Source of the DNA: Bacillota bacterium
GTDB lineage: Bacteria; Bacillota; Limnochordia; DTU087
Direction: 5' to 3'
NCBI GenBank assembly: GCA_012518905.1
Contig: JAAYRF010000008.1
Coordinates: 1-60,114, forward strand
Length of the DNA stretch: 60,114 bases
Shown: piece after piece, positions 16,652 through 48,277 of the stretch
Layout: each line of letters starts with the position of its first letter
Position numbering within the stretch: the stretch's first letter is position 1
Program-made: the position numbers and the translations under genes
Notes under the pieces: model-generated
The model's database searches: none
What the model was told of the DNA's origin: nothing
What the model saw: only the letters and a program-made list of their open reading frames with translations

Positions 16652-17503
16652 TCACATTCCCTTGAAGCCTTCGCCGAGCACCTCCCGAACATCACTAATG
16701 ACCACAAAGGCTCTAGGATCAATATCCCGCACCATTTCCTTAATAGCCGCGATTTCTGAACGGGTCACAATGACAAAAAGCACCTGTCGTTCATTGCCGG
16801 TGAACATCCCTGTTCCCTGTAATGCGGTAACGCCTCGCCCCAGCTGTTCCATGACGACTTGAGCAATCTGGGTTGGCTTTTGGGAAATGATATAGGCTGC
16901 CTTATTATAGCCAATGCCCTCTTGGACTAGGTCAATCGCTTTCGAGGAAAGAAAAAGACTCAAGAAAGCATATAATGCCAACTCAGGGCCGAAAACGATC
17001 CCCGCCAAAAGGATAATTCCTGTATCTACCATAAGCAAAGATTGCCCTATAGGCGTGCCGGTAAAGTGATTCACCAAAAGGGCTGCCAAATCTGTACCGC
17101 CAGTAGAACCACGGTATCTCATGGCAAGGCCGATACCTACTCCTCCAATACTACCCCCGTAAATGGCAGCTAACAGCGGATCCGCGGTAATAGGGGTAGT
17201 AATAACTCCAAACACGTCGGTTAGTATACCTAGTAAAACAGCTCCATAGACACTCTTTAGTCCAAACCTGGGGCCAAGAAAGTGAAAAACTGCGATAAAC
17301 AGAGGAATGTTATAGATCAAAATGGTCATGCCTACGGGAAAACCCCATAAGTGTAGGAAAATCGTGCCCAGTCCTCCGGCGCCTCCGCCGGCAATCTTAT
17401 TGGGGATCAAGAACCAATTATAGGCTAAAGCAGTTGTAGCTACACCTAAAGATACCATGATATATTCATAGGCAACCCGTTGCCACCGCGACACTACCGA
17501 CAC
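16652..17503 (-). CDS. YitT family membrane protein (C-terminal DUF2179 domain)
   Basis: Five or six TM segments with a G-rich YitT-type pattern, then a soluble C-terminal domain (VLFVIVTRSEIAAIKEMVRDIDPRAFVVISDV). Confidence 0.8.
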   Translation of the reverse strand: MSVVSRWQRVAYEYIMVSLGVATTALAYNWFLIPNKIAGGGAGGLGTIFLHLWGFPVGMTILIYNIPLFIAVFHFLGPRFGLKSVYGAVLLGILTDVFGVITTPITADPLLAAIYGGSIGGVGIGLAMRYRGSTGGTDLAALLVNHFTGTPIGQSLLMVDTGIILLAGIVFGPELALYAFLSLFLSSKAIDLVQEGIGYNKAAYIISQKPTQIAQVVMEQLGRGVTALQGTGMFTGNERQVLFVIVTRSEIAAIKEMVRDIDPRAFVVISDVREVLGEGFKGM

Positions 17504-22039: not shown

Positions 22040-23156
22040 CTACCGCTGTTTATGCCAATGCAAATATGCTTGGATAAACGGATCGAGTTCACCATCCATG
22101 ACAGCTTGTACATTGCCGGTTTCGTATTCTGTGCGATGGTCCCGAACCATGGTGTAAGGGCAGAAAACATAGGAACGGATCTGGCTTCCCCAGGCTATCT
22201 CGCTCTGCTCGCCCCGCAGCTCTTCCATCATGGCTTCTTGCTCCAACAGCTTTTGTTCCAACAGCCGAGCCCTAAGAAGCTGCATGGCCCGCTCTCGGTT
22301 GGCATGTTGAGATCTTTCTCCCTGACACTGGACCACTATACCAGTGGGGATGTGGGTGATGCGCACAGCAGAATCAGTCTTGTTGACATGCTGACCCCCT
22401 GCACCGCTGGCCCGATAGGTATCGATGCGCAAGTCAGCTGCCTCGATAGCGATCTCATCGTCATCCTCTACCTGTGGGATGACATCCACCGATGCAAAAG
22501 ACGTGTGCCTACGGCCAGATGCGTCAAAGGGCGAGATCCTCACCAAGCGATGAACCCCCTTTTCCGCTTGTAGATACCCGTAAGCATTTTCACCTTTGAC
22601 TAAAAACGTGACATTCTTGATGCCCGCTTCTTCCCCCGGCATCAGATCAATAACCTCTATGCCGAAATCATGCCCCTCTGCCCAACGACTGTACATTCTA
22701 AAGAGCATCTCCGCCCAGTCCTGGGACTCCGTGCCTCCGGCCCCTGAGTGAATGGATACATAAGCATCACTGGCATCATGATCGCCACCCAATAACGTAG
22801 CAAGCTCGAGGGTCTCCACTTCTCGTTCCAGCCCTTCGAGCTCGGTTTTGACTTCGCGGATGGTATCTCCATCCTCCTCGGCCAATCCCAATTCCAGTAA
22901 TACCCCTAAGTCATCCAGCAATCTCTTGGCTTCATACCAAGCATTGAGGGGGTGTCTCGTGCTGTTTAGTTTCCGGATAACACCCTGGGCCGCCTCTGGA
23001 TCATCCCAGAAGCTCGGTTCGGCCATGAGCGCCTCGTACTCCTCCACCTGTTTGGCTCTGCCTACAACGTCAAAGATAAACCCCCATTTCTTCGATTTTC
23101 CGTTGCAGCTCTTCTAGGCGCTCTTCTATCTCTGGTACTTCGATCTCCCAAACCAC
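22040..23156 (-). CDS. prfB: peptide chain release factor 2, expressed through a programmed +1 frameshift
   Basis: The body contains SPF (RISPFDASGRRHTSFA) and GGQ (SGAGGQHVNKTDSAVR). Frame 0 starts at the GTG at 23156 (GGAG SD 8 nt upstream) and stops at the TGA at 23072-23070. The +1 frame continues as DVVGRAKQVEEYEAL... Confidence 0.95.
23070..23084 (-). promoter_or_regulatory. prfB +1 frameshift site (GGGGGT tat CTT TGA C)
   Basis: The minus strand reads ATGGGGGTTTATCTTTGAC. This is the canonical CUU UGA C slippery/stop context with an internal SD-like GGGGG 3 nt upstream of the CTT (L) codon. Confidence 0.9.
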
Positions 23157-46422: not shown

Positions 46423-46845
46423 CTACCGGGCTCGAAAGAAAATGCCCTTAGCTTCAGCCAAAATCCTACCCTCTTCGTCCCGGATCTGTCCCTGTGCAGT
46501 AAAGGTGCTGCCCCGTTCCTCCTCCACCCATCCCTTAACTGATAACGGAGACCCTATCAAGGCAGGCCGCCGGAAGCGTACCTCAATTTTCCCTGTTACA
46601 GCCGTAACCCCGCGAGCCGCAATGGCCTGCACCATGACTTCATCAAGGAGGGTGGAAAGTAGACCTCCATGCAGCACCCCATCATATCCCTGATATGTCT
46701 TTGACGGTGCAAAGTCTCCATATGCCGCTTTGCCATCGGTGAAAAACTCAATTTGTAGACCTAAGGGATTATCTTGACCGCAGACAAGACAACCCCTTGA
46801 AGGCGGTAATCTTCGCATATTCCTTAGGTCGCCTTTTTGATTCAT
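46423..46845 (-). CDS. PaaI-family hotdog-fold thioesterase
   Basis: 140 aa with [12 protein letters not shown] and [19 protein letters not shown] motifs. Its ATG overlaps the trpB stop (ATGA). Confidence 0.8.
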
Positions 46846-48053
46846 TGGCCGGCAACAGCAGCCTTGGCCGCCTGTACCATTTCAAACACTTGCTGAGCAT
46901 CTTTGTCACCCCGCCCGGAGAGATTGACTATAATCACATCCTCCGGTGAGAGACTCGGTGCCAACTTCACCGCTTGAGCCACGGCATGGGCGCTCTCCAA
47001 TGCAGGAATAATACCTTCCACCTGGGAAAGCAGCTTGAAAGCTTCTAGCGCTTCTTCATCGGTTACGGCTACATACTCCGCTCGCCCACTAGCTTTATAG
47101 AAGCTATGCTCCGGTCCCACACCGGGATAGTCCAGCCCAGCAGCGATGGAGTAGGTGGGTAAAGGTTCACCGATTGCATCTTGCATGACATAACACTTAA
47201 AACCATGCAAAAGACCGGGTTTTCCCAAATTGAGGGGAGCTGCATGCTTGCCTGTGGCCAAACCCTTGCCGGCAGGCTCAACTCCAATCATCCCAACGTC
47301 CTTGTCATCATAGAAGGGATGGAACAACCCGATGGCATTACTTCCACCGCCGACGCAGGCTATGACATAGGTGGGGAGCTTGCCTTCCTGCTCAAGAATT
47401 TGCTGCCGGGCCTCCTTGCCAATGACACTTTGAAAATGTCGCACAATCGCTGGGAAGGGATGAGGTCCTACGGCAGAGCCTAGCATGTAATAAGTATGTC
47501 CATAATTGGCCAGAAGGTCAGCAAAGGCTTCGTCCACAGCTTCTTTTAGAGTGCGATTGCCCGTGGTAACTGAGATAACTTTAGCACCCAAGAGCTCCAT
47601 ACGAAAGACGTTCAGTGCCTGACGACGGATATCCTCGGCACCCATATAGATGGTGCAATCCATCCCAAACAGAGCACATGCTGTAGCAGTAGCCACCCCA
47701 TGCTGCCCCGCACCAGTTTCTGCTATCACCCGCTTGATACCCATCCGTTTGGCCAAAAGTGCCTGACCGATGACATTGTTGATCTTGTGGGAGCCGGTAT
47801 GGTTGAGATCCTCCCGCTTAATGTAGATCTTAGCTCCACCTAACTCCTCTGATAACCTGGCGGCGTAATACAAGGGGCTGGGGCGACCAACATAATCCCT
47901 ATGATAGTACCTTAGCTCCTCGTTAAACTCCTCATCGTCCTTGTAGCGCAGAAAGGCATCTTCCAGATGATCAAGGACTGTTTGCAGCTCCGGTGTGACA
48001 AAACTTCCCCCGAACTGTCCGTAAAACCCTTTCTCCCCATCAGTCTTCATCAT
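46842..48053 (-). CDS. trpB: tryptophan synthase beta chain (TrpB1 type), stand-alone
   Basis: [15 protein letters not shown]-lysine motif [23 protein letters not shown] and [10 protein letters not shown]. No trpA or other trp genes are adjacent. Confidence 0.92.
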
Positions 48054-48054
48054 G

Positions 48055-48116
48055 CTCCTCCTCAGCTAATCTAATCTCAGCTATACTCGGCTCAACTCAC
48101 GGGAACCTCTAGCCTC
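48055..48116 (-). promoter_or_regulatory. candidate TRAP (MtrB) binding site: 11 (G/U)AG triplets overlapping the trpB SD
   Basis: The minus strand reads GAG gc UAG (10 nt) GAG uu GAG cc GAG ua UAG cu GAG au UAG au UAG cu GAG gag GAG c AUG. Eight consecutive triplets have exact 2-nt spacers. The last triplets form the SD GAGGAGGAG. A TATAAT lies upstream (reverse complement of 48144-48149). Confidence 0.7.
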
Positions 48117-48228
48117 TCCGGCGCCGATACGCTGGTACATGAAATTATAGTTCGCCGATAATGCTGGACTTCCTGCCATATACTAGTTCCAGTTTTCTCA
48201 AAGAATAAGTCTTACTCCATGCTAAAGC

Positions 48229-48257
48229 TTGCTGAGAGATCACTTCCATGGTAAACT
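48229..48257 (+). promoter_or_regulatory. candidate marR-MATE promoter (TTGCTG - 17 - TAAACT)
   Basis: Read directly, 52 nt upstream of the marR GTG. Confidence 0.45.
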
Positions 48258-48277
48258 AGTTCGTGTGCGAACTGTTT
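48254..48277. promoter_or_regulatory. inverted repeat AACTAGTTCG-tgtg-CGAACTGTTT, candidate MarR operator
   Basis: The core AGTTCG/CGAACT arms are perfect, and 8 of 10 positions match when extended. It overlaps the -10. A second ACTAGTTC copy lies at 48182-48189. Confidence 0.5.

Follow-up and report, generated by a model that had tools for sequence, protein, structure and literature searches.

The leader of a lone trpB gene raises the question of which factor reads the run of G/UAG triplets that extends into its Shine-Dalgarno (SD) sequence, and at which step of expression that factor would act. The stretch of DNA analysed, called the window throughout, comprises 60,114 nucleotides and carries the gene on its minus strand. 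As judged from the sequence, the array is likely to be a TRAP-type translational operator; TRAP as the binder, its encoding in the genome of the window and repression by occlusion are all points that we infer. The sites recognised by TRAP (MtrB) contain 9-11 NAG repeats, the spacers of which are not conserved, and TRAP can block the ribosome-binding site directly, as at trpG and trpP (PMC4347634).

Geometry of the triplet array and the start of trpB

The features of the array and of the gene behind it are as follows.

48055..48098, minus strand: core array of nine G/UAG triplets (six GAG and three UAG), proposed TRAP-binding site, conserved in phase in the sister genomes L007-L011.
48107..48118, minus strand: upstream triplets GAG 48118, GAG 48116, UAG 48111 and GAG 48109, 10 nt from the core.
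48055..48063, minus strand: SD sequence GAGGAGGAG, made of the last triplets of the array and invariant in six leaders.
48048..48050, minus strand: probable trpB start codon (the second ATG), giving the 402-aa form, with SD spacing as in relatives.
46842..48050, minus strand: stand-alone trpB (tryptophan synthase beta, TrpB1 type; Pfam PALP, TIGR00263).

The first eight triplets of the core array were found to recur exactly every 5 nt, with first bases at 48098, 48093, 48088, 48083, 48078, 48073, 48068 and 48063, and a ninth triplet follows at 48057. The spacers are of 2 nt throughout, except for the one of 3 nt before the ninth triplet, which itself reads GAG (48060). On the minus strand the array region reads ...cgGAGAGgcUAGAGguucccguGAGuuGAGccGAGuaUAGcuGAGauUAGauUAGcuGAGGAGGAGcAUGAUG, and the 255-bp intergenic region upstream of trpB ends, on the trpB strand, with ...GAGuuGAGccGAGuaUAGcuGAGauUAGauUAGcuGAGGAGGAGcAUGAUG. 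The upstream group reads GAG 48116 - gc - UAG 48111, and the GAG triplets at 48118 and 48109 overlap these two. It is possible that the upstream triplets at 48107..48118 provide extra TRAP contacts.

The period of the eight triplets, the offset of the ninth and the identity of the last three GAG triplets with the ribosome-binding site (SD 48063..48055), all given in the earlier note, were reproduced on the minus strand. The total of eleven triplets given there was found to be valid in part. Two upstream triplets (GAG 48116 and UAG 48111) add to the nine of the core, so that eleven is a legitimate way of counting the window sequence; this count does not extend to the relatives, in which the nine triplets of the core and one upstream GAG are kept. 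With nine triplets and spacers of 2-3 nt the array fits the TRAP recognition rule of 9-11 NAG repeats, as had been proposed (PMC4347634). The proposed likeness in placement to B. subtilis trpG and trpP, where the site overlaps the SD, also holds, the last triplets of the array being the SD.

The distance from the 3′ end of the array, GAGGAGGAG, to the ATG is 1-4 nt. An alternative in-frame ATG (48053..48051) is present 3 nt upstream of the probable start. The second ATG (48050) is the likelier start of trpB, as it lies 6 nt from GGAGG, is aligned with the starts of the relatives and gives the 402-aa protein on record (NLJ84932.1); the 403-aa form that would begin at the upstream ATG was not found in public assemblies.

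The array against chance expectation

The longest chain of G/UAG triplets in the window, as found by dynamic programming with spacers of 2-3 nt, contained nine triplets and occurred once, followed by chains of three as the next longest. In 300 first-order Markov windows of 60 kb, scanned on both strands, the maximum chain was six and was reached three times. A six-triplet pattern gave a single match in the window, at the array, and no match in 100 dinucleotide-preserving shuffles. Chains of at least seven triplets, sought on both strands of 1.37 Mb of fetched genomic DNA, were confined to the region upstream of trpB orthologues. A metagenome-wide scan with a triplet-only pattern gave two matches, both of them low-complexity purine repeats unrelated to trpB; the collection is incomplete for this sample, because the scan missed the known JGI copy of the contig (L005).

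The 5-nt period gives the array a superficial likeness to a microsatellite, and a functionless pentanucleotide repeat, arisen by chance or by slippage, was considered for this reason. Tandem Repeats Finder gave no row at the array at a minimum score of 30 and the units share the triplet alone, so the array is not a slipped microsatellite or a simple tandem duplication. The observed chain of nine against a simulated maximum of six and the absence of matches among the 100 shuffles likewise speak against a chance origin, and the array is kept across genomes whose flanks are only about 44% identical, a pattern of conservation that refutes it. The probability left to a functionless repeat is next to nil. 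The uniqueness of the array in the window, the Markov simulations, the shuffles and the 1.37 Mb of real DNA agree with one another, and bear out the original statement that such an array is very unlikely to arise by chance.

Conservation of the array in sister genomes

The comparison set contained the window and five sister genomes assembled from digesters (L007-L011; TrpB identity 79-88%), which were obtained by a scan with one genome per species. These five genomes are of 2.4-2.7 Mb with 48-50% GC and are classed only as 'Firmicutes' (PMC7038595, supplement).

The phase of the array and its distance to the start codon were found to be kept in all five sister genomes. In all ten triplets, positions 2 and 3 (A and G) were 100% identical among the six genomes, followed by position 1 with 85% identity, where G or U was present in 59 of the 60 cases (ten triplets in six genomes). 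GAG and UAG were interchanged at three of the triplets. The nine free spacer columns were about 43% identical, as against 44% in the unconstrained flank, whereas three to five spacer columns, including CC and CU, were invariant, which is not predicted by a simple TRAP model. The alignment of related leaders that the earlier note had called for thus gave conserved triplets in a conserved phase, with drifting spacers. At the level of the alignment, an invariant AG with drifting spacers is the expected signature of a protein that reads the triplets and ignores what lies between them.

The region upstream of the core in the relatives was found to contain one GAG followed by a short GC-rich hairpin. 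In L007-L011 this hairpin separates the upstream GAG from the first triplet of the array, with stems that differ among the genomes (CUGC/GCAG in some and GGCA/UGCC in others), and it is weak in the window leader. It may serve as a structured spacer between triplets.

The genes around trpB were found to differ among the sister genomes. A divergent marR-matE pair is present upstream of trpB in the window; in L008-L011 marR is not adjacent to trpB and the array is still present upstream of trpB. The flanking genes differ, and therefore the array travels with trpB. MarR was considered as a regulator acting through the array and was rejected on the same distribution.

Promoter-like block, leader and predicted RNA structure

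Two further features were found upstream of the array.

48123..48135, minus strand: conserved 5′ leader motif CCAGCnnAUCGGC, with invariant columns, paired in the predicted folds.
48144..48176, minus strand: promoter-like block GCAGGA-N14-GAAC, with fixed spacing in six genomes.

The promoter-like block was found as GCAGGA-N14-GAA(T/C/A) across the six genomes. If used, it would put the start of the transcript near 48137 and give a leader of about 87 nt, as read from the sequence. The block overlaps a perfect TATAAT at 48149..48144, which has no usable -35 element at 17 nt, and a full sigma-70 promoter was not found at 48144..48176 by a simple scan. The GCAGGA-N14-GAA block resembles what we take to be the B. 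subtilis sigma-H promoter consensus.

A consensus scan of the leader gave no terminator-like site on the trpB strand, and the array reaches as far as the start codon. With no terminator to separate array and start codon, control would be translational, which agrees with the purely translational layout claimed at the outset. A leader-peptide attenuator was also considered. The leader ORF of the window contained 19 codons without Trp and that of L007 contained 18 codons with two Trp, followed by L008-L011, which contained no start codon there; this candidate was rejected, as a Trp-containing ORF is not conserved and a terminator is not present.

The CCAGC..UCGGC nucleotides of the 5′ motif were found to be complementary to GCCGA (48091..48087) and GCUG (48081..48078) of the array, which are the two invariant spacers with their neighbouring bases. 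The two helices, 48134-48131/48081-48078 and 48127-48123/48091-48087, were present in all six minimum-free-energy folds and in the RNAalifold consensus. They suggest a switch made of RNA only, in which pairing of the 5′ motif with triplets 2-5 would set translation or mRNA stability and the periodicity would be secondary; the invariance of the paired 'spacers' is in line with this. Such a switch is very unlikely. No compensatory substitution was found in the helices across the six leaders, the stability of the leader fold was equal to that of shuffled sequences (z = 0.08), and the leader gave no Rfam match. Nine paired bases cannot explain an invariant AG at ten phased triplets, and CC and CU spacers are also present in unrelated arrays without the 5′ motif. 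Because of the absence of compensatory change, the shuffle-level stability and the presence of CC and CU elsewhere, the helix of the 5′ motif is an unproven possibility. Within the preferred reading as a TRAP operator, the modelled helix might be a competitor of TRAP or shield the 5′ end.

The trpB gene and its neighbourhood

The product of the gene was matched to the NCBIfam equivalog TIGR00263 with 599 bits (cut-off 392), and its top matches in the PDB were all TrpB. The naming of the gene as an orphan trpB was upheld by the TIGR00263 match and by the absence of trp neighbours here and in all close relatives; other trp genes were not found in the window, nor was any Rfam family at its gathering score. 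The contig of the window recurs in several assemblies from biogas fermenters.

The gene downstream of trpB was found to be the following.

46423..46845, minus strand: gene for a hotdog-fold (4HBT) thioesterase, with a 4-nt overlap between its start and the stop of trpB.

The thioesterase is probably co-transcribed with trpB, in the window species only. As a conserved operon member it was rejected, since it follows trpB in the window species and not in the sister genomes, where trpB is monocistronic. A 4HBT thioesterase, not a close homologue of the one in the window, was also found in L103 (8482..8907), following a TRAP gene and its small ORF.

The best match of the window TrpB among solved structures was the reconstructed ancestral LBCA TrpB (5ey5_B, E = 9e-176). 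LBCA TrpB is noted for its high stand-alone activity. On reading of the alignment, two of the six 'Res6' residues of LBCA TrpB were found in the window TrpB (PMC11917138).

A perfect palindrome, AGTTCG-TGTG-CGAACT, was found at 48257..48274, some 35 nt before the marR start codon, and is probably a MarR operator; the simple scan scored the same palindrome as a terminator-like site on the plus strand. The prfB gene (22040..23047) was found to be preceded by a canonical programmed +1 frameshift site, UAU CUU UGA C, at 23070..23080 on the minus strand. The gene order hpf-secA-prfB in the window is the same as in Bacillus.

Arrays and T-boxes upstream of stand-alone trpB genes

An adjacent downstream trpA was absent in all fetched trpB loci with at least 64% identity to the window TrpB (L012-L053, L058, L070, L078, L118 and L119), including those of cultured relatives of Lysinibacillus, Bacillus, Clostridium and Desulfotomaculum, and was present at almost all of the more distant trpB loci (58-63% identity). 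The window gene is thus placed, by this shared lack of trpA, in a clade of stand-alone trpB paralogues.

A T-box core motif was found 90-270 nt upstream of trpB in about 26 loci, mostly of the Clostridia type. An Rfam T-box was present directly upstream of trpB in 10 of the 11 loci tested, and the specifier was UGG (Trp) in both of the loci read. A Trp T-box on a 'trpB-like' gene of Dehalococcoides is mentioned in PMC2494555. The core motif was found in none of the array-bearing leaders, and no locus contained both a T-box and an array. The majority of the loci of the clade bear a Trp T-box, and the remainder bear G/UAG arrays. In the window, no sequence reached the Rfam gathering score of the T-box (RF00230). 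In L026, a Clostridiaceae MAG, an Rfam match to the Na+ riboswitch (DUF1646 type) was found at 16795..16854, unrelated to the array.

Distant stand-alone trpB genes were found to contain 6-10 triplets in two other layouts. In the first, the triplets flank the SD and cross the start codon (L012-L014, L118, L119 and the Bacillaceae loci L043, L044 and L050). In the second, they run from the SD into the first ~17 codons (L020 and L078).

As the array and a sensor of tRNA-Trp are mutually exclusive on the same gene clade, the array would be tryptophan-responsive. The exclusivity, read from the sequences of these leaders, is strong indirect evidence for the array as a tryptophan-responsive control element. 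It also bears on the proposal that the repeats, which are rich in purines, enhance translation constitutively or serve as a standby site for the ribosome, without any sensing of tryptophan; the very strong SD at the 3′ end and the GAG repeats, as partial matches to an SD, may be cited in favour of this proposal. Triplets of the UAG type are not SD-like and are nonetheless conserved or swapped with GAG, and a standby site needs no strict 5-nt phasing. The array was moreover present on trpB only, in 1.37 Mb, and alternates with a Trp T-box on the orthologues. A constitutive enhancer is accordingly accorded a very small probability, a shade below that of the RNA-only switch.

TRAP proteins and the identity of the binder

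TRAP proteins gave 7486 matches with a profile of divergent representatives and were found to be widespread outside Bacillaceae. The matches included Thermosyntropha, Desulfitibacter, Carboxydothermus, Syntrophomonas, Heliorestis and many MAGs named 'Bacillota bacterium' or 'Clostridia bacterium'. In the MAG series of the window itself, two 'Clostridia bacterium' MAGs were found to contain TRAP, by accession-prefix look-ups of the clusters.

Two loci from uncultured Bacillota served as positive controls. The regions L093 8296..8420 and L130 6285..6400 were found to be classic attenuators of the TRAP type, with 10-12 G/UAG triplets ahead of a strong intrinsic terminator. Each array follows directly on a TRAP gene and precedes trpE-trpB-trpA or aroF-trpEDCFBA. 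So TRAP and triplet arrays co-occur in uncultured Bacillota, and the chain detector finds them there.

The TRAP loci outside Bacillaceae (L087, L093, L103, L105, L110, L120, L127/L128 and L130) contained dnaE, malic enzyme, accD/accA, pfkA, pyk or ytrH/ytrI as neighbours of the TRAP gene. An ORF of 60-69 aa, with weak DUF2007 matches in some, was found downstream of TRAP in every one of these loci, immediately after it except in L093, where trpE-trpB-trpA intervene. In L087 a gene of the Trp_repressor family was found two genes from TRAP.

A tblastn search with 235 TRAP sequences gave no mtrB in the window or in any fetched trpB locus. Eight TRAP-bearing lineages were compared with the lineage of the window by sample, assembly accession and tetranucleotide signature, and none was tied to it; the tetranucleotide correlation of the TRAP contigs with the window lineage was at most 0.55, as against 0.84-0.91 within the lineage. 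These results would suit a different multimeric RNA-binding protein, not a homologue of TRAP, that reads G/UAG at a 5-nt period in a lineage without mtrB, and the invariant CC/CU spacers and the conserved 5′ motif, both foreign to the classic TRAP site, would suit it as well. The composition of the array, with (G/U)AG triplets, spacers of 2-3 nt, 9-11 copies and a position on the SD of a trp gene, is exactly the rule of TRAP, and TRAP is common in related uncultured Bacillota, where it stands beside the same type of array. To our knowledge, no other protein with specificity for G/UAG arrays has been described. A non-TRAP binder is thus judged unlikely, and the same low probability is given to the wider statement that the lineage lacks mtrB and uses an unrelated oligomeric binder, or that the array and the 5′ motif form a new protein-RNA switch. 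If true, either would be a convergent second solution to the triplet code of TRAP.

Proposed mechanism

With TRAP retained as the probable binder, the following course of events is proposed. When tryptophan is plentiful, the Trp-loaded TRAP ring would wrap the leader, with one G/UAG triplet per subunit. Because the last triplets are the SD itself, the 30S subunit would be excluded from the TRAP-bound leader, and the stand-alone TrpB, which would form tryptophan from indole and serine, would not be made. When tryptophan is scarce, TRAP would be released and the strong GGAGG site would be used. No terminator step would take part in this control.

Comparison with known systems

The TRAP operator of B. 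subtilis trpG was reportedly described by Du et al. in 1997 and by Yang et al. in 1995. As in the window, trpG (pabA) contains about nine G/UAG triplets around and over the SD, and the ribosome is blocked there without a terminator (PMC4347634). The target in the window is a stand-alone trpB, whereas trpG encodes a shared glutamine amidotransferase. The window array is wholly 5′ of the start codon, with its last three triplets as the SD itself, and its host is an uncultured, deep-branching lineage of Bacillota.

In B. subtilis trpP (yhaG) and ycbK, translational control by TRAP is exerted through triplets over the SD and the start region of a monocistronic Trp-related gene (PMC4347634). Those arrays enter the coding region, as do the ones in L012-L014, L020, L078, L118 and L119, whereas the window array does not. 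The triplet code of the B. subtilis trp operon leader is common to the window array and to the arrays of L093 and L130. In the trp operon leader the array is followed by a terminator and control is transcriptional, as in the layout of those two loci, whereas the window array lacks both a terminator and an antiterminator and stands directly before the start codon.

The Trp T-box on orthologous trpB genes acts on the same gene clade and presumably by the same logic, with TrpB made when tryptophan or charged tRNA-Trp is low, whereas its mechanism and sequence are wholly different and no T-box was found in the window. The sites of HutP and CsrA are likewise short, repeated, purine-containing motifs in leaders that are read by an oligomeric protein. 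HutP recognises two sets of three UAG triplets with 4-nt spacers on hut genes, and CsrA recognises GGA in hairpin loops. The window leader contained instead nine G/UAG triplets in a row at a 5-nt period, with GGA confined to the SD.

Significance

The literature searched contained no account of a TRAP site on a stand-alone trpB gene or of a TRAP regulon in Clostridia. The known translational targets of TRAP are trpG, trpP, ycbK and trpE. If the reading is confirmed, a stand-alone trpB, presumably serving indole salvage, would join this short list, and the triplet code of TRAP would be seen to operate in uncultured Bacillota of anaerobic digesters, at a great distance from Bacillus. Nothing in the window array alters the picture of how TRAP itself works. 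Phased triplet chains of at least seven provide a simple sequence criterion for the prediction of TRAP regulons in metagenomes. The lone trpB genes of this single clade, with Trp T-boxes in certain lineages and G/UAG arrays of three layouts in others, are a clean natural case of one regulatory system replaced by another.
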